A stretch of 40,032 nt of DNA from a phage: the sequence record PZ490076.1; one strand, 5' to 3'. The first letter of the stretch is position 1; every line of letters begins with the position of its first letter. Below the pieces are notes generated by a model. It was not told where the DNA came from, did not search any database, and saw only the letters and a program-made list of their open reading frames with translations. Below, piece after piece: positions 271-40,032 of this stretch. Both the position numbers and the translations under genes were made by a program.

Positions 271-447
271 CTATAAGTTATCTGGTACATGTTTACTGTC
301 CTCAGTGTGTAAGCTGTCATGTATGCGCTTGCGTCTCCTGTAGACCACTTTCAAGAGACGCATGGCCTCCTCGTGGTTTAACTGCCCGGTCTTGACCATA
401 ATCCGGGCGATGGTGACGTGGTGCTGGCAGAGACCATAAGTTACCAT
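271..447 (-). CDS. Hypothetical small early ORF, 57 aa
   Basis: Hand translation (MVTYGLCQHHVTIARIMVKTGQLNHEEAMRLLKVVYRRRKRIHDSLHTEDSKHVPDNL); GAGG 9 nt upstream; starts 15 nt after the kinase-like gene. Confidence 0.2.
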   Translation of the reverse strand: MVTYGLCQHHVTIARIMVKTGQLNHEEAMRLLKVVYRRRKRIHDSLHTEDSKHVPDNL

Positions 448-461
448 CTTGATGACCTCAC

Positions 462-965
462 CTATTGCAGCTTGGACACAAGGAAGAAACAGTCAACCAG
501 TATCAGCTTGCCATTCACAGCCCGTACATTGCGTGGGCTTATCTCAAACCGAATGTCTGACCCAAAGTTAGAGCAGGCGTCCAGCGCCATCAGCACATCC
601 ATCAGACCTTCCCTCACAGTCTCAGTCTCAGACCTGTCGTGTGCAACTTGGAATATCTCGTACCACTTGTGATACAGGTCAGCAGGCCGAGAGACTACCG
701 GAGACCGTGAGAAGCACTCGCGCAGCACCTGATAGAGTTGCCACTGGTCGTCGGCTAAATGCGCCTTGAGACCTCGCGTTGGTGGCATGTAGTCCATCTC
801 ATACGTGCCTACCTCAATCATCTTGACTTCAGGGAACAGTGGAGACTCAGGAAACCATCCCCACGCCATACACTCCTTTATCGGGTCAGAAGAGATCAGA
901 AGTACACGCTTCCCGCAATCCTTCAGGTAGCACTTAGTGAACGCGCCTTTGCCTATCAGTTTCAT
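462..965 (-). CDS. Early protein, protein-kinase-like (resembles the N-terminal kinase part of T7 gp0.7), 167 aa; first gene after the host-type early promoters
   Basis: Gly-rich loop-like IGKGAF near the N-terminus and a catalytic/activation-loop-like segment DIRFEISPRNVRAVNGKLILVDCF, comparable to T7 gp0.7 (GNGHFS ... [21 protein letters not shown]); AAAGGA RBS. Confidence 0.5.
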   Translation of the reverse strand: MKLIGKGAFTKCYLKDCGKRVLLISSDPIKECMAWGWFPESPLFPEVKMIEVGTYEMDYMPPTRGLKAHLADDQWQLYQVLRECFSRSPVVSRPADLYHKWYEIFQVAHDRSETETVREGLMDVLMALDACSNFGSDIRFEISPRNVRAVNGKLILVDCFFLVSKLQ

Positions 966-1137
966 CTTGTTTATCCTTTAGTTAGTGACTATCAGTCAGG
1001 CCGCTATAAGTTAACGACCTGTAGTTAATCACTGTCGGTGCACATTAAGAGTTTATCCAGATTGTTAAAGAGCATTCCCTTCAGTCAGAGGACTTCAGGT
1101 AGACCATTTCAGTGTTGGTCATCACCGTTGTTTCGAT

Positions 1138-1174
1138 GTGGTACAGCTTACATCCTATCGTTACATCTTGTCAA
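1138..1174 (-). promoter_or_regulatory. Host sigma70-type early promoter (T7 A2/A3-like): -35 TTGACA, 18-nt spacer, -10 TAAGCT, followed by GTACCACATCGAAAC
   Basis: Minus strand reads TTGACAAGATGTAACGATAGGATGTAAGCTGTACCACATCG, closely resembling T7 A2/A3 as I recall them (TTGACA...TAAGAT/TACGAT GTACCACATG). Confidence 0.55.
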
Positions 1175-1279
1175 CTACTTTCTGTCATCTGCCTGTTGTT
1201 CGTATGACTTATCAGGCTGTCTACTTAACCGGGATGACCCGGCGTCTTCACTATCCGGTTGTTGCCGTGTCGTGTTGAC

Positions 1280-1315
1280 GGAAGCTATTAAGCCATAGCC
1301 TAGACCTATAGTCAA
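1280..1315 (-). promoter_or_regulatory. Host sigma70-type early promoter (T7 A1-like): -35 TTGACT, 17-nt spacer, weak -10 CTTAAT
   Basis: Minus strand reads TTGACTATAGGTCTAGGCTATGGCTTAATAGC; layout parallels T7 A1 (TTGACT TAAAGTCTAACCTATAG GATACT). Downstream leader contains AAGTAGACAGCCTGATAAGTC, near-identical to the T7 early leader as recalled. Confidence 0.45.
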
Positions 1316-1426
1316 TAGGTAATTCGAAATAATATTGATTAAGCTATCGTCGGCCTCATGGTGTAAGAGGATATAGTCTTTGACTAACATGTCTTTGACC
1401 TTAAGTCTATAGCTGTGTGTCTATTA

Positions 1427-2431: not shown

Positions 2432-4219
2432 CTAGTGGAACGTAACGTAGGACCCTAGTCCAAGCTCGTCGTCCGTATCGTGAGTTACCCGGACCCCATT
2501 GTCCCAGAACTCAGTGTGGATGGACTCGAAGCCTTTCCGTGGGTTCTCCATCTGTTCTTCCAGCCACTCCTCAGTGACTTCACGTTCGCCTTTGTTGGCA
2601 TCCTTCGCCATAGACTCAACGAAGAACTGTACACCGATAGCCAGCGCATCAAGTCGGTCATCGTGTGCCAATGCTCCACGTTCACGAGAGATACGTGTCA
2701 TCTGGTAGAAGAGAGAGTAGATAGGATTACGAACACCATCCTTATCAGAGGCAGACTGGTAATCTTGGACGATAGCAGCAGCGTTGATGATAAGTCGGTG
2801 AGACCCCATGATAGGCTCCAGAACGTCACAGATGCGGAGCTCCTTCTGACCCTTACTCTTCACTTCAGTTACAGCAGCAGGATGAATACGGGAAGCTACA
2901 GGCTTGAATAGCTCAAGGTACATCCCATCACCGAAGTTACCCTCAATGACGTATTCGTTGACCTTCCACTTACGACCAATCTTAGCTAAGGCTTCCAGAG
3001 TAGAGTCTTCATAGCCACCTCGCATACCGCCAACTTCCATAGCGAAGATGTAGCCGTTTAGCTGATACAGTACCGCATAACCAGTTTCATCCTTACCACG
3101 ACCACTAGGGTCAATGACTAGAATCTTCTGGGTGTACGAACTGAAGGCAGAACCTACAGTCTGATACGTGTGGTATGAGTCACCCATGAGTCCAACGTTA
3201 GGAACGTCCTCACGCTTGTTCTGAGGGTTAGGAAGCCATTGGTATACCATTGGGCTAGACGCTGGGTCCAAGTCGGCTACGATAAGGTCACGGAGCTTCA
3301 GAGGGTACTTCTCGGCATCACTCAGGTTAGGGTTAAGCATGAACTGTAGAGCGAAGCCAGCTTTACCATAGGACAGCTCACGTTCCTTCAGGTCCGTATC
3401 ATCGAATCGTACCTCATCGGTCGGACGCCAGTAGAAGGACTCAGGGTCCTCTTCCAGTTCTGCCTGAAGCATAGGAGCCAGACGGTCGCCGTAAGACTGC
3501 CAGTCCTTCTTATCGCGTGGGTAGCGAGCGGGCCAGATGGTAGTGGTGTATCCACGGCCTTCCAGCTCACGATACAAGGTCATCTCGTTCTGAGGAGTAC
3601 CTAGATAGATGATTGTACCTCCCGGCTTCAGGATAGCGTCGAACTCTTTTACAAGCTCTGACAGACGGTCTCGTGCAGCCTGAGTCGCTGAGTTGTTAGG
3701 AACCTCAACGTCATCGGCAATCAGGATGTCAGCACGACTACCAGTCAACTGACCAGTGATACCAACGGACTTAACCGAAGGTGAGTGGTCTGGCTTGGCT
3801 GGTCCAACGTCGAAGCTGATAACCGCATCTCGCTGCCCCTGCTTAGGTTTGAGTTCCTGAAGCTGAGGCATGAGGTCGATGATTCGCTTGATGAAGATGG
3901 AGTTCGCATCGGCTCGTTCCTTTGAGGCCGACACAATCATGAACTTCAAGTCTGGGTTGTTCCATAGTTTCCAGACCACGAAACCACAGGTCAGAAACGA
4001 CTTACCAATACCACGGAAAGCCTGAAGGATGAAGCGGCGATTATCCCCAGCAGCCAGCTTCTTACACATATCTATCTGGCAGCGGGTTGGAACCGGAAGG
4101 CTAAGAGCTTTCCAGAGAACGAAGATGAAGAACACGAAGTCCTCTTTCATCCTTTTTGTCACGGCCTCATTACGCTCTTGCGGCGTTAACTGCATCAATT
4201 GCCTCCTGTTCAGTATCAA
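2432..4219 (-). CDS. Terminase large subunit (T7 gp19 homolog), 595 aa
   Basis: Translation aligns with T7 gp19 from [18 protein letters not shown] onward ([53 protein letters not shown]). Confidence 0.97.
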
Positions 4220-4556
4220 ATCGACCGAGCCAGCGAGGTTGTATAGCCTTCCACTTCCCGGTCTGTTTACAATAAGACACGCCTTTCGGCAGGTCCCTGT
4301 TCCTGTTGTTTTCAGCCTTGGTCACAGCCCGAAGGTTCTCAATCCTGTTGTCTGTCCGGTTGCGGTTGATGTGGTCAATCACAAGGTCTGATTCAAGGGC
4401 GAACTCAGGGTTGTGCAGCTTGTAGATTAGACGGTGTACGAGATACTTACGGTAGTTGACCGTAGTCCTAAGATAACCGTGGTTGTCCATTGAGCCGACT
4501 TCACGTCCCTTCCTGAACAACTTACCGTCTGAATACGCAAAGTCTGTCAACATCAT
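4170..4556 (-). CDS. Free-standing HNH homing endonuclease, 128 aa, between Rz and terminase
   Basis: HNH motif in translation ([19 protein letters not shown]...[26 protein letters not shown]); start overlaps the Rz stop (ATGA); no counterpart at this position in T7. Confidence 0.85.
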
Positions 4557-4999
4557 TGCTCCTTCTCTTGCTGTAAGGCTCTCACAGTGTCTTGAAGGGC
4601 CTTAATCCACTTGTCTCCTTTCACTCCGATGGCGATAAGACGTTTAGCATCTCGTTCGTCAAGTTCGGCGTAACCATCAATGAAGCATCGACCGTCACTT
4701 TGCGTGGTTCCACTCGTAGGTTTGACTCGGACGAGCAGCCGCTTATTGTCAGACTTAAGGTCAGTAATAATCCTATCAGTGCTGCCTTCCAGCTCGGACA
4801 TTTCGTCCTGAAACCGTTTGGACACTTTGTTGACTTCAGCTTGGACAGCAAGCCTTGTATCTTCCGATGCCTTAAGATTCGAGGTGTATTCTGCATTGAC
4901 CTTAGCCTCCCACTTGTTGTTAGCGGTGTGGTAGCCACCAGCAAACATCACTGCTGCAAGTAGCCACGGAGCCGCTCTCTTAAATTTTTGAAATACCAT
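4553..4999 (-). CDS. Rz-like i-spanin (T7 gp18.5 homolog), 148 aa
   Basis: N-terminal transmembrane segment (WLLAAVMFAGGY) and strong similarity to T7 gp18.5 (EGSTDRIITDLKSDNKRLLVRVK..DERDAKRLIA..GDKWIKALQDT). Confidence 0.85.
   Translation of the reverse strand: MVFQKFKRAAPWLLAAVMFAGGYHTANNKWEAKVNAEYTSNLKASEDTRLAVQAEVNKVSKRFQDEMSELEGSTDRIITDLKSDNKRLLVRVKPTSGTTQSDGRCFIDGYAELDERDAKRLIAIGVKGDKWIKALQDTVRALQQEKEQ
4621..4896 (-). CDS. Rz1-like o-spanin lipoprotein embedded in the +1 frame of Rz (T7 gp18.7 homolog), about 91 aa from the internal Met
   Basis: Lipobox LTISGC and C-terminus similar to T7 gp18.7 (WKAALIGLLLTLSLTISGCSSES...SLMVTPNLTNEMLNV). Start codon uncertain. Confidence 0.7.
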   Translation of the reverse strand: MQNTPRILRHRKIQGLLSKLKSTKCPNGFRTKCPSWKAALIGLLLTLSLTISGCSSESNLRVEPRKVTVDASLMVTPNLTNEMLNVLSPSE

Positions 5000-5381
5000 A
5001 TGTCTCCTTTAGCATTCTGCTATGAGTTGACTTAGCCCATTCCACGACTTCCTTCAGATTCTTAGTAGGAGCATGAGTTTCTTTCTTACCTCCCATCCTA
5101 ATGTCACCATAGTACATAGTTACACCTTGACGTTTAGCAAACCTAGAGTATACGCCTTTAGGTAGTTCCCTAGAGGATACAGTGTTAGCCTTGTTTGCGC
5201 CTTTAGGTATGCACCTAAGGTTTGACAGTTCGTTATTCATAGGATTCCTGTCAATGTGGTCTATGACGTAGCCATCTGGGATAGGACCGTAGGCTTCCTC
5301 CCATAGTAATCTATGAACCCCATGAACCTTACCATTGCGAGTAACCTTCCAGTACCCACCACTTATGTAAGCGTCTTCCAT
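4980..5381 (-). CDS. Free-standing HNH homing endonuclease, 133 aa, between small terminase and Rz
   Basis: HNH motif (GKVHGVHRLLWEEAYGPIPDGYVIDHIDRNPMNNELSNLRCIPKGANKAN); strong RBS AAGGAGGT 5 nt upstream of ATG. Confidence 0.85.
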   Translation of the reverse strand: MEDAYISGGYWKVTRNGKVHGVHRLLWEEAYGPIPDGYVIDHIDRNPMNNELSNLRCIPKGANKANTVSSRELPKGVYSRFAKRQGVTMYYGDIRMGGKKETHAPTKNLKEVVEWAKSTHSRMLKETYGISKI

Positions 5382-5707: not shown

Positions 5708-5898
5708 GTTTTACCACCTCCTTTAATCGTTTTGTAGACTAGCACACCAATCTGGACAACGGTGTACGCGATAGCTGCAACGTAGAACCATTCGTTCAGT
5801 GTAAGTCCGAAGAAGAACCGACTGGCACCATCAGCCGCAGCGGTCCCGACGATAGGAGAGGCTTTAAGGACCTCATTCTTGAAGTCTAACTCAATCAT
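5704..5898 (-). CDS. Class II holin (T7 gp17.5 homolog), 64 aa
   Basis: Similarity to T7 gp17.5 (FFFGLTLNEWFYVAAIAYTVVQIG). Confidence 0.8.
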   Translation of the reverse strand: MIELDFKNEVLKASPIVGTAAADGASRFFFGLTLNEWFYVAAIAYTVVQIGVLVYKTIKGGGKT

Positions 5899-6031
5899 AA
5901 AACCTCCAGTTTAAAGCGGGTCGTCCGTGACCCAAAGTTGTTACATACGTTGGTTAGCGTGTAGTTAGCCTCTACCTCCGCAACTTTCTAACATCTACCC
6001 CACCAACTTAATGGCAAAATGGTTTTGTTTA

Positions 6032-9000
6032 TTACTTCTGTTCAAGAGCAGAAAGTCTGGCTTCGATTCTTTCCAGTTTTCTTCTCTGATAAGCGGCTTC
6101 AGCAAAGAAAATTCCGTCAGGCCGAACACCCCACTCCTCACCCTCTTCGTGAATAACCACCTCGGTGTATACAGGTTCTTCCGTAGTGGTGACATTACCC
6201 TCCTCGTCAGTGTGTTCAATGATTTCATTGTGCGAAAATACCGTATCGGTCATCCGTGGATACTTGTCATAGCACAGAACAGCATAACGACAATTCGTAC
6301 TGTTTTCGTCCATCAGCCCATGTGCAATGAATACATCACGAATTTGCTGAGCAATAACCCCGAAGTGAATACGAGCATCATTGCCTTTCAGTTGAACAGC
6401 ATCTAACCACTGGTACATGATGTAGTGAACGTCACTCCAGGCATCAAGGAAAGCATCATCAAAAACTACCGGCTCTGTTTTCCTCTCCCCGTTAGAAGTA
6501 ACAATAGGGTTACTTCCGAGGTATGCAGTGGTGAAACGGTTTCTAGGCCCACCAAGCGCAGTGACGTTATCGTTATAAGGCTTAACATCAGCACTCTGAA
6601 ATAGATGCTCATCTCCGTTGTAAACTATTCGCCTTGAGTCGGTGTTATTTGCACCATAAAGCGTAATCTGTGCGCCAGTCGTTGCACTGGTGCCTTCACC
6701 CCCGCAAAATATGATGCGCTGCCCTGCCGGGTTATCAGTCGGTATAGATTTTCCGATAAACCCATATTCACCTTCCATTAAAACTTCAGAGCGAATGTTA
6801 CGACTGGTGCTGGCTCTAATGGTCACATGACCTAAACCCAAATCCCCTGTAAATTCCATTGGCGCAGGAACAGTGCGAATCCCATTCGTATCAAAAAACA
6901 CGGGAACAGCTCTGTTAGGTACAGCACCATACCTGAAATCCCTTGAAACACGATTGTCTGGGCCAATCTTCATTTTGTAGCAATACAAATCTGAGGGATG
7001 ACCATCTGATTTGAATGGGTCCTTCGCTGAGTTATCTCCATATGCCCATGGGTTAAAATGGTCCTCTCCACCAAACATGTAGTAGATGTAACTATCCTTC
7101 ACAACTACCGAACCAACACCTACACCTGAGTTAACTATTCCGCCCTGATAAATCTGGTCAGTGATGTTAACCCATTCAATACCATCTGCATTCCAATTGT
7201 TTACATTCAAGCGTGCATAGAAGGTGCGAGGATAAGATGCCTTGTAACGATCATCTGGTGCACCTGCTTCCCATTCATTTTCTGCACGTTCTGAACCAAA
7301 CATAATAAGGTCATCCCCTACTTTAGCAAAAGGCAATGTAGTATGATGAACATTATGTGGAAATCTCAGTGACTCCCAAGTCTGACCTATGTCTCTACTA
7401 CGATGCAAAGAGCTACCTAGTCTATCGCTCCTAGTGCCACGGGTGATGAGGTACAATACACCATCGTAATACTTGATGCAGGGTTCTGAGGCATCTGACT
7501 CATACTCTGAAGGTATCTGACGACGAACATAGTTAGCCGGATTATCGAAAGCGTTAGGGAAGTAGAATAGTCCAACTTCGCGTGGAGCTACATCACCTTG
7601 GTGATAACCCATAACAAAGCCATTGTTATCAATAGCAGAAAAGCTATGAACTTTAGTCACACGAGGAATTAAGCCAAGATCTGTCTTACGCCATGGCGAT
7701 TTATGGAATGAAGTACCCATATGCCAGTTCTTTCCAGCGTTATTCAAATCTGAGTCCTGCTGGTTAGGTGTAAGAACCGTGAAGTTGTCCTTATCTATTA
7801 CCGTTGCAACCTTCATATCACCTGATACACCTGTTACCGCAGAGTTAGAGAAGTTAACAAAGTCACCCACGAACAGCCCGTGATCAGGTACATGGATTGT
7901 TGCATATCGCTGATTTGCTGCCTTCGTAATACCACCAGTGAGATGCAGGCTACGAGACATGGGGCGATCCCACAATGCACAATTGGTTAATGCGTTCTTG
8001 GCTAAAGTACGTGTTTCAATCATGGCAAACAGACGGTTGCGACATACACCCATACTCATACAATGATAGTTCACTGTAGGGTAATCTGGATGCAGATCAG
8101 TTAACCACTCTGGAGTAGACCATGTTTGACCATCATCACCAGACTTAACCCATGATACGTGAAGACGGCTAACACCATGACGATCGCTACCCATGTAAGG
8201 TGCATATATCACATTCTCATATACGAACGCTTTATCCTGAGGCCACGCATTGTAATAAGGGGTGTCCGTTATCTTGAACAGCTCACCCTGAACAAATTCT
8301 TCAGAGACATAATAAAGAGGTTGTCCGGGAATGCGCTCATAAACGAAACGAGTGTTGATGAAGCGACTAATGTCAGGCAGGGATGTGACCTTATATGTCT
8401 TCCCATTGCCATTAAGCCTTTGTCCAACCGGTGTGTCGTTTAATGCGCTCGTTAACGCTGCTGTATCATCAGTGACACCATCCCCTTTAGCACCCCAACC
8501 ACGGACATCTTTTTCATCAAGCCAGCGTGCTCTATGTAATTCAGGGTAGAGTATTGCCCCTTCCGGGTTTGAAATCTGACTTCTTAAAGCAGCATCACCA
8601 ACACTAACCCACGCACCTAATCCAATCCCACCGGAAGTTTCAGGAGTTGAACCAGCAGGAACGTTCTTTGGAAGCGTACCATCCCAGCGGTAATAATCAC
8701 CATCCTCTTCCCATAGCAGGACCTCGCTCCATGTTGTAACGTTGTAGCCTTTCTCGAAGGAGCGACGGGTAATATAGCCAATTAGACCAGCTTCCCTGAT
8801 ACTCTCAGCGATTCGTCGTGCTTCGTCCTCGCTATCCTTAGCGTTGCCAGCAGAGCTGCTAGCAGCATCGGCATATTCCTTCGCTAAGTCAACCGTTTGG
8901 TCTCGACCTTCTTCTGCAATATGGATAGCCTGAAGCTCTGAATTGGTCAGGTCACTAGCTGTCAACACTGAGCCATTCCTGAAGTCTACCACTAAGTCAG

Positions 9001-39392: not shown

Positions 39393-39719
39393 TTACTTGC
39401 ATATCAGTGGGTTAGCGTGAAGATGACTGAAGTCACCGTGAGTCGTGTGCTTGATGGTTGACCGTTGGTCTATCGCCTTCCAGCCTGAGACTAAAAGTTT
39501 ACCATCGTCAGTGATCGGTCGTCCGCCATACGCCAGACACATCAGTTCGGACTTATGGCCCTCTGCCCGGAGTCGTGCCTGTAGTACACGGTCCCGCTCC
39601 TGCTGTTGACGTGCGGCGTGACTTGACGTTCCGTGACGATACCCGGTAGCCAGTAGGCTTAACATATTCATTTCTGCGTCCATAGAGTGTACCAAATTAA
39701 TCCCGTATGACTTGTTCAT
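39393..39719 (-). CDS. Hypothetical early protein, 108 aa from MNKSYG (the track gives a longer 125-aa form starting at 39770)
   Basis: ORF between the kinase-like gene and the RNAP gene; TAATG coupling with the upstream 65-aa ORF; no recognised homolog. Confidence 0.4.
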   Translation of the reverse strand: MNKSYGINLVHSMDAEMNMLSLLATGYRHGTSSHAARQQQERDRVLQARLRAEGHKSELMCLAYGGRPITDDGKLLVSGWKAIDQRSTIKHTTHGDFSHLHANPLICK

Positions 39720-39916
39720 TACAGTTTGCTCCCAAGAGTTGCTATATCCCAGACGTTCGCGAGGTTGCATATGAATCGTCCGTTAGGCTGACGTACAGTC
39801 CAGCGGACCATACGTACATAGTTGAATTTATAGACTTTACGCGCTTTGTTGATGTCTCTCACCAGCACGTAGGCGATAAGTCCATAGCCTATGGCTATCA
39901 ATATTGCGCTACTCAT
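39719..39916 (-). CDS. Hypothetical small early protein with a hydrophobic N-terminus, 65 aa
   Basis: ORF track; N-terminus MSSAILIAIGYGLIAYVLV looks membrane-anchored; start lies in the window-end overlap region. Confidence 0.35.
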   Translation of the reverse strand: MSSAILIAIGYGLIAYVLVRDINKARKVYKFNYVRMVRWTVRQPNGRFICNLANVWDIATLGSKL

Positions 39917-40032
39917 AGTGATTTCCGTTTAATACAGTCGTATATCCCATACCCTATTAGCCAGATGACCGGAGATAAGCATACCCAATGTCCAACACTC
40001 ATAGTTAACCTCTATCAATTTAAGTGGTAATC

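Follow-up and report, generated by a model that had tools for sequence, protein, structure and literature searches.

The best functional models for a kinase made early by a T7-like phage are T7 gp0.7 and Salmonella phage JSS1_004 (PHROG 2828, PF27024), early promiscuous kinases that disable several defence systems by phosphorylation (PMC13645617, PMC12345140). Such use of phage kinases as broad anti-defence weapons has been shown only recently, and in the literature searched an anti-defence role had been studied for the gp0.7 family (T7 kinase, JSS1_004) only. The other early gene relevant here is ocr (gene 0.3 of T7 and K1F; PF08684), which encodes a highly acidic DNA mimic and lies as the first cistron after the R0.3 hairpin, directly upstream of gp0.35. 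In this study, a phage sequence of 40,032 nucleotides (nt) (record PZ490076.1; the whole of this stretch is referred to as the window) was analysed. It represented a circularly permuted genome of a Kayfunavirus, a K1F-like T7 relative, with its genes on the minus strand. Its first early gene, here called the mini-kinase gene, occupied the position of ocr and encoded a protein of 167 amino acids (aa) that belonged to PHROG 11084 and was predicted to have a protein-kinase-like fold.

The mini-kinase gene in the gene 0.3 position

The gene and its expression signals were located as follows.

462..965 (stop included), minus strand: mini-kinase gene, 167 aa, PHROG 11084, from the list of open reading frames (ORFs), with ATG start and TAG stop
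974..978, minus strand: ribosome-binding site AAGGA, read from the sequence, 8 nt before the ATG
984..1033, minus strand: R0.3-type RNase III hairpin homologue, 50 nt, between the promoters and the mini-kinase gene
1145..1174, minus strand: A2/A3-like host promoter, -35 TTGACA at 1174-1169, 18-nt spacer, -10 TAAGCT at 1150-1145
1287..1315, minus strand: A1-like host (sigma-70) promoter, -35 TTGACT at 1315-1310, 17-nt spacer, -10 CTTAAT at 1292-1287

The A1-like promoter was predicted by eye through comparison with the annotated A1 promoters of T7 and T3. In the A2/A3-like promoter, the -10 was followed by GTACCACAT (regular-expression match), as in T7 A3 and T3 A2, with a start near 1137; a generic promoter scan called neither of the two. 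The leader hairpin had a folding energy of -21.8 kcal/mol (z = -4.85), none of 200 shuffled sequences being as stable, and could be aligned with R0.3 of T3, an annotated stem-loop, and with the corresponding T7 region. With these promoters and an R0.3-type hairpin upstream, the mini-kinase gene was the first cistron, exactly in the position of gene 0.3. Purifying selection acted on the gene, as ratios of nonsynonymous to synonymous substitution rates of 0.08 to 0.13 were obtained against SH4, GA2A, ZG49, and one relative from IMG/VR. The initial annotation, made from the sequence alone, had placed the 167-aa ORF first after the A1- and A2/A3-like promoters, and the ORF itself, its ribosome-binding site, the promoter comparison, and the substitution ratios all bore this out.

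The sole other minus-strand ORF of at least 30 aa in the leader (1390..1175, 71 aa) overlapped the promoters themselves. It matched PHROG 30192 and was labelled 'alpha,alpha-trehalase' in phage vB_EcoP_F; it is probably an over-called ORF propagated by annotation.

Comparison with vB_EcoP_F delimited the exchanged segment. The two DNAs were collinear from the terminase gene through the promoters and the hairpin to the start codon of the mini-kinase gene, where collinearity ended (window position 959), and it returned precisely where the gp0.35 homologue begins (window position 448). Between these points vB_EcoP_F carried an 81-aa gene (gp09), the R0.3-type hairpin for a second time, and an ocr gene verified with Pfam. 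Phage vB_Eco_1RS was built in the same way, with the R0.3-type element duplicated before ocr, and K1F carries ocr as gene 0.3. Thus, the mini-kinase gene replaced the ocr cassette at the gene 0.3 position in this lineage, and the two alternate at this slot in closely related phages. In a phage collection, K1F-type ocr (at least 80% identity) was present in about 226 records and the mini-kinase gene (at least 83% identity) in about 38; the best 60 records of each list, a partial comparison, shared no accession. As PARIS-type systems are triggered by Ocr (PMC9122126, PMC10802264), selection against being sensed by PARIS may plausibly have favoured the replacement of ocr.

A tandem duplication of the cassette was observed in ZG49 (L007), in which a second, partial copy of the mini-kinase gene (1908-2192; 95 residues, 95% identical) was followed by a second copy of gp0.35.

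The early region and the rest of the window were searched for the products expected at this position. In tblastn searches of the whole window with T7 Ocr, two K1F-type Ocr proteins, the T3 S-adenosylmethionine (SAM) hydrolase, and gp0.7 of T7 and T3, the best E value was 0.6, and T3 gp0.3 (the SAM hydrolase) gave a best value of 2.4. None of the small ORFs scanned around gene 1 matched Pfam ocr (PF08684), a profile matched by the Ocr proteins of sister phages at 1.5e-32 and 5.3e-29. The acidity of Ocr, about 29% Asp plus Glu as counted from the T7 sequence, was found in no ORF of the window, the extreme within the early region being an isoelectric point (pI) of 4.8 with 15% Asp plus Glu; the most acidic protein overall was a late protein of 306 aa. 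That no Ocr-like protein or T3-type SAM hydrolase had been recognised in the early region in the initial annotation was therefore borne out by the tblastn searches, the Pfam scan, and the acidity of the ORFs, and neither protein could be assigned as the anti-restriction function of this phage.

Palindromic restriction sites were strongly avoided. The window contained no EcoKI sites (5.4 expected), 18 GATC sites (162 expected), and 5 CCWGG sites (78 expected), whereas other type I sites were present (EcoBI 10, EcoAI 11, EcoR124I 7); sites for PstI, HindIII, and KpnI were likewise absent, and EcoP1I, EcoP15I, and BREX-type sites were over-represented. A connection between loss of ocr and avoidance of type I sites was considered and rejected because the ocr-carrying vB_EcoP_F had the same pattern, the agreement covering seven sites (four type I sites, GATC, CCWGG, and PstI).

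Predicted fold, active-site residues, and distribution of the family

The 167-aa protein matched PHROG 11084, a family of unknown function, over its full length (E = 1.4e-89; residues 1-167 on profile positions 2-163 of 170). Its AlphaFold model, computed with 56 relatives, had a predicted local distance difference test score (pLDDT) of 97.1 and a predicted template modelling score of 0.91. The predicted N-lobe was of the kinase type, composed of five strands, a glycine loop, and a helix, and the order of its elements was also kinase-like: three strands with the glycine loop, a helix, two strands, and a hinge. Next came a bundle of helices and a short strand leading to the catalytic loop, and then two strands and the Mg-binding loop; of the C-lobe, only a three-helix bundle and these two loops were retained. 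The chain ended nine residues past D158, the residue in the position of the Asp of DFG, so that no activation loop and no substrate-binding sub-domain were present, and the later C-lobe helices F to I were absent.

In Foldseek searches of the PDB, the top matches were mostly kinase-fold proteins, including the aminoglycoside 2''-phosphotransferase APH(2''), corramycin phosphotransferase, RAF, CDK2, Rio2, casein kinase 2 (CK2), and choline kinase; the best match had an E value of 1.4e-3, a probability of 0.99, and a template modelling (TM) score of 0.41, and ribosome recycling factor and SAICAR synthetase also appeared among the lower matches. In the viral library, the best matches from outside the family were uncharacterised phage proteins of 180-240 aa, followed by A0A7L7SMK1 (E = 8.5e-5, TM score 0.57), a protein named as a T7-kinase homologue (PMC13645617). 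Sequence searches gave one suggestive alignment only, a sub-threshold profile match to CK2 alpha (E = 0.58) in which afEiSPRNvav..gkLiLlD was aligned with HRDVKPRNVMID...LRLID. The AlphaFold model and the Foldseek matches support a protein-kinase-like fold for the protein.

Four elements in this model corresponded to kinase active-site motifs.

936..953, minus strand: conserved glycine-rich loop G5-K-G7-A-F9-T10, putative ATP phosphate-binding loop
876..878, minus strand: K30, first in the helix that follows strand 3, a lysine that may bind ATP
528..545, minus strand: catalytic-loop motif E141-I-S-P-R-N146, counterpart of HRD-x4-N
486..494, minus strand: D158-C-F160, counterpart of the Mg-binding DFG, placed as in kinases after strands 147-150 and 153-156

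Conservation was counted over 263 aligned relatives. In the glycine loop, G7 was kept in 261, F9 in 255, and G5 in 249 of them; the loop aligned to LGNGHFS of gp0.7, which contains G76, and the G76F mutant of the T7 kinase has been described as catalytically dead (PMC13645617). Position 30 was Lys in 260 relatives and Arg in the other three. In the catalytic loop, E141 was invariant (263/263) and N146 nearly so (261/263), with S143, P144, and R145 each kept in at least 251; this loop was in register with HRDVKPRN of CK2 alpha in the sub-threshold alignment, and with FDMHSGN of gp0.7. D158 was present in 262 relatives, followed by C or V and then by F160 (259/263). Given that G7, K30, E141-x4-N146, and D158 were retained in 260 to 263 of the relatives, the protein looks like an active minimal kinase-fold enzyme. 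The kinase-like motifs that had drawn attention to this ORF (G5-K-G7-A-F9, K30, F-E141-I-S-P-R-N146, and D158-C-F160) were present and conserved family-wide, and the confident model together with Foldseek matches almost exclusively to kinase-fold proteins, at probabilities of up to 0.99-1.0, agreed with a kinase-like nature.

The family comprised 755 clusters (50% identity, E up to 0.001), nearly all of stand-alone proteins of 155-190 aa, and was essentially confined to phages. Carriers included T7-like phages of three groups (Kayfunavirus, Aarhusvirus, and Molineuxvirinae), Seuratvirus including the BASEL phage Bas25, Otagovirus, and Cellulophaga and Aeromonas phages. A cellular origin was rejected, as a pattern-seeded scan of 185,579 bacterial species genomes yielded merely three loci, all on contigs of metagenome-assembled or single-cell genomes. 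In 14 of 39 IMG/VR loci, the mini-kinase gene lay 1-4.3 kb upstream of a T7-type RNA polymerase gene, and in Bas25 it headed an operon after a long intergenic gap. In four contigs that were not T7-like, an ocr homologue preceded it on the same strand at a distance of about 1 kb. In one of these, a 77-kb phage contig (L044), the two were separated only by a hyperacidic ORF of 116 aa and by a few short ORF predictions.

This 116-aa ORF (7249-7599 in L044) has a Glu/Asp-rich tail and may encode another DNA mimic. A further conserved arrangement was observed in Klebsiella phages FBKp16 (Molineuxvirinae) and S16c, in which the mini-kinase gene was followed by a gene for a conserved 300-aa protein of PHROG 4571 (function unknown; 4715-5620 in L014 and 847-1749 in L011) and then by the RNA polymerase gene.

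Proposed function and competing explanations

By analogy with the known early phage kinases, and considering the occupation of the ocr slot and the ocr neighbourhood in other phages, a host-modifying or counter-defence protein kinase appears to be the best reading of this gene, and we give it about an even chance of being right. In such a scheme, transcription by host RNA polymerase would start at the A1- and A2/A3-like promoters while the leading genome end is entering the cell, with the mini-kinase gene transcribed first, and RNase III would probably process the transcript at the R0.3-type hairpin just upstream. Mg-ATP would most likely be bound through G5-x-G7, K30, N146, and D158, and the gamma-phosphate would most likely be transferred with E141 standing where kinases normally have the catalytic Asp. 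The substrates would most likely be host proteins, phosphorylated broadly as by T7 gp0.7, and their phosphorylation would inactivate defence or host functions during the first few minutes after infection. Such a position, first in entry and first in transcription, is suited to a role that must be filled before the remainder of the genome becomes exposed; as the very first cistron, the mini-kinase gene would be expressed even earlier than gp0.7. The missing activation loop and substrate lobe of the model fit an unselective, constitutively open protein kinase, or else a small-molecule kinase.

Comparison with other reduced or atypical kinases places the predicted protein at an extreme. Bud32/PRPK and RIO kinases are likewise trimmed kinase folds without a normal activation loop, and Rio2 was among the Foldseek matches, but they have about 220-290 aa and keep the catalytic Asp and the strand-3 Lys, and the PHROG 11084 proteins fall below them in length by about another 50 residues. 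WNK ('with no lysine') kinases are active though their ATP-binding lysine has moved off strand 3 to the glycine loop, whereas the only lysine of PHROG 11084 conserved in nearly all relatives, K30, lies on the helix after strand 3 and may have the same role. Ocr, with which the mini-kinase gene shares its place after the R0.3 hairpin and upstream of gp0.35 as well as its neighbourhood in the four other phage contigs, is unrelated to it in sequence and structure: the mini-kinase is near neutral (pI 6.3) and has an enzyme-like conserved active site.

A bolder proposal, unlikely as a whole, is that PHROG 11084 (about 165-175 aa) represents the smallest self-sufficient kinase family, with a rewired active site, and acts as a broad phosphorylation-based counter-defence effector in place of or beside Ocr. 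If this were true, the Glu would be catalytic and the ATP-binding Lys would have been relocated to the helix after strand 3, and the exchange of Ocr would let the phage escape Ocr-sensing host systems such as PARIS. Apart from this proposal, PHROG 11084 represents a second kinase-fold family in phages, by prediction, unrelated in sequence to gp0.7. If active, it would put a lower limit on the size of a kinase fold and show an unusual set of catalytic residues, and the phages with the ocr or the mini-kinase cassette would provide a nearly isogenic natural pair for comparing protection; if inactive or irrelevant to defence, it would be one more small early gene.

Several observations weigh against a host-modifying or counter-defence protein kinase. 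No significant match was found in Pfam, searched with the protein and 56 relatives, or in NCBIfam, and phmmer and profile searches of PDB sequences returned no kinase at significance. Foldseek E values against solved structures were marginal (1e-3 or weaker) with low TM scores (0.4), and the best PDB matches were small-molecule kinases, not protein kinases. The canonical strand-3 Lys (VAIK) was missing, the counterpart of gp0.7 K93 being L23, a position hydrophobic family-wide, and that of CK2 K68 being I24, which was not conserved. The catalytic Asp was replaced by Glu in all 263 relatives and was never Asp. Co-occurrence with gp0.7 in Aarhusvirus and with ocr in the four contigs indicates that the mini-kinase is not simply interchangeable with either, and the allele in the window lacked the last seven residues of its relatives. 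In the literature, no biochemical or genetic data on any PHROG 11084 member were found, and the family was not met in searches on PHROG 11084, the Aarhusvirus kinase, and the Kayfunavirus kinase, or in one phage accessory-gene screen.

An unlikely alternative is a small-molecule kinase, which early in infection would phosphorylate a metabolite, a nucleotide-derived immune signal, an envelope sugar, or an antibiotic-like compound. The top matches in the PDB were indeed aminoglycoside 2''-phosphotransferases and corramycin phosphotransferase, with choline and ethanolamine kinases also listed, and the protein has neither the activation loop nor the peptide-substrate-binding helices of protein kinases. 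It is, however, equally without the helical C-terminal sub-domain in which small-molecule kinases of this fold bind their substrate: the aminoglycoside 2''-phosphotransferases, the best matches among solved structures, share its compact bilobal ATP-binding core, but they are enzymes of about 300 aa with a helical substrate-binding sub-domain, and the identity was 12%. Moreover, the best match of known identity in the viral library, the T7-kinase homologue, stood above any small-molecule kinase, and no metabolic partner genes were found nearby.

Distinctly improbable, in our estimate, is a kinase-fold protein that does not phosphorylate. This could be a regulator that binds or hydrolyses ATP, a pseudokinase inhibiting a host target through binding, or an enzyme catalysing a different reaction, for example AMPylation. 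The kinase-fold proteins SelO and SidJ catalyse other reactions, and the invariant Glu, the absent strand-3 Lys, and the missing substrate-binding lobe would be compatible with such a protein. Yet the glycine loop, K30, N146, and D158 were kept in at least 260 of the 263 relatives, the pattern of an Mg-ATP-handling enzyme, whereas pseudokinases usually lose such residues.

The 3' end of the mini-kinase gene is altered in this phage.

441..464, minus strand: premature amber TAG (464-462) plus the seven lost codons and the old stop (EVRSSRW*)

Codon 168 was TAG in the window and GAG in SH4, GA2A, and ZG49, BUCT788 being the sole sharer of the TAG; owing to this change the last seven residues (EVRSSRW) of the 174-aa proteins of the relatives are lost. 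In SH4, GA2A, and ZG49, the gene ends at a TAA overlapping the ATG of the next gene (ATGGTAA), an overlap that no longer exists in the window. The exact 167-aa sequence was not found in a collection of 15 billion proteins, and the listed members of its 90% cluster were mostly of 174 aa. Decay of the gene, with the amber codon as a loss of function, would account for the shortening, the uncoupling from the next start codon, and the absence of the exact sequence from the collection, but it is improbable. Every conserved core residue up to L166 was intact, several natural relatives terminated within 2-3 residues of the same point, neither frameshifts nor other defects were found in the gene, and the same allele was present in the near-identical BUCT788, a cultured isolate on E. 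coli E4002. The shortened protein is probably still functional.

The resemblance to the N-terminal kinase part of gp0.7 claimed in the initial annotation stood for the predicted fold and the order of motifs but not for family membership. Both are early genes transcribed by host polymerase in T7-like phages, and their products share a kinase-like fold, similar glycine loops (IGKGAFTKCY versus LGNGHFSAAY), and catalytic loops that follow the pattern acidic-x4-N; a T7-kinase homologue was also among the structural matches. In sequence, the 167-aa protein matched neither PF27024 (E up to 10) nor PHROG 2828 (E up to 1), whereas true gp0.7 homologues matched PHROG 2828 at 1e-60 or better (T7 gp0.7, 1.6e-169; kinase of Dickeya phage Mysterion, 1.1e-60). 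Comparison with gp0.7 by hhalign gave a probability of 6% (P = 0.006) with the motifs, including the catalytic loops, in register when the first family alignment was used; with a broader family profile, the probability was 25% (P = 8e-4) and the alignment was confined to the glycine loop. AlphaFold produced a low-confidence model of T7 gp0.7 from a shallow alignment (pLDDT 62; below 50 in the kinase core). The mini-kinase family is also shorter than the 242-residue kinase domain of T7, lacks the basic C-terminal shut-off (DNA-binding) domain, and has Glu for Asp, no strand-3 Lys, and D-C-F (D-V-F in relatives) in place of the D-P-V that T7 kinases have instead of DFG (PMC13645617). Its gene here is in the 0.3 slot and not beside gene 1, and in Mysterion the mini-kinase gene (1057-1590) and a PHROG 2828 kinase gene (1910-2968) stand side by side, relatives of this phage carrying both as well. 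With a different profile family, no shut-off domain, and both genes together in Dickeya phages, the mini-kinase is, as judged from these comparisons, not a cut-down gp0.7, and descent as a truncated remnant or kinase-domain-only version of it is highly improbable.

A gp0.7-type kinase in Kayfunavirus, suggested by the name 'phage JSS1', was rejected because E. coli phage JSS1 (KX689784) has ocr and no kinase. Two phages bear this name, the E. coli Kayfunavirus KX689784 and the Salmonella phage of the kinase papers (OP185508), and the kinase study has been cited for the E. coli JSS1 record in at least one paper (PMC13522605).

Genome layout and other features of the window

The two ends of the window were identical over 127 bases (1-127 and 39906-40032), which indicates a circularly closed assembly with 39,905 bp of unique genome; the true terminal repeat is collapsed in the assembly. 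With 99.6% over the early 2.4 kb, Escherichia phage BUCT788 was the nearest record; the relatives that followed were Kayfunavirus, and the gene 1 polymerase was 93-99% identical to those of related Kayfunavirus contigs. The genes delimiting the early region and the remaining early genes considered were as follows.

4219..2432, minus strand: large terminase
271..447, minus strand: gp0.35-like early gene, 58 aa, PHROG 5058, 82% identical to gp0.35 of vB_EcoP_F
39719..39916, minus strand: small early protein similar to that of T3 gene 0.6, 65 aa, PHROG 2385
39393..39719, minus strand: early protein of 108 aa, PHROG 7066, function unknown; the ORF extends to 39770 as 125 aa
36614..39295, minus strand: T7-type RNA polymerase (gene 1), from the ORF list, closing the pre-polymerase early block

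From the positions of the terminase and polymerase genes, the early region extends from about 1320 down to 1 and then from 40032 down to 39296. The 65-aa protein was 91% identical to gp12 of vB_EcoP_F and 40% identical to T3 gp0.6. All of the remaining early proteins (58, 51, 65, and 108 aa) belonged to PHROGs of unknown function.

A second variable spot of the early region was revealed by BUCT788 (L001), in which an additional 87-aa gene with a helix-turn-helix-like N-terminus (5892-6155) lay between the gp0.35-like and 0.6-like genes; it was missing from the window (compare about 117-168).

Upstream of the early promoters, on the side of the genome end, an array of short GACTGTAGG-type direct repeats was found at 1427-1518 and 1776-1813; T7 has similar arrays beside its terminal repeat. 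In addition, a 22-nt direct repeat, AGCCATAGCCTAGACCTATAGT, was present at 1291-1312 and 1601-1622, the copies being 95% identical and one of them overlapping the spacer of the A1-like promoter. Around the spanin gene, in the interval from the small to the large terminase gene, two ORFs similar to HNH-type homing endonucleases (128 and 133 aa; 4170-4556 and 4980-5381, minus strand) were inserted, and one of the two is annotated as a homing endonuclease in BUCT788.

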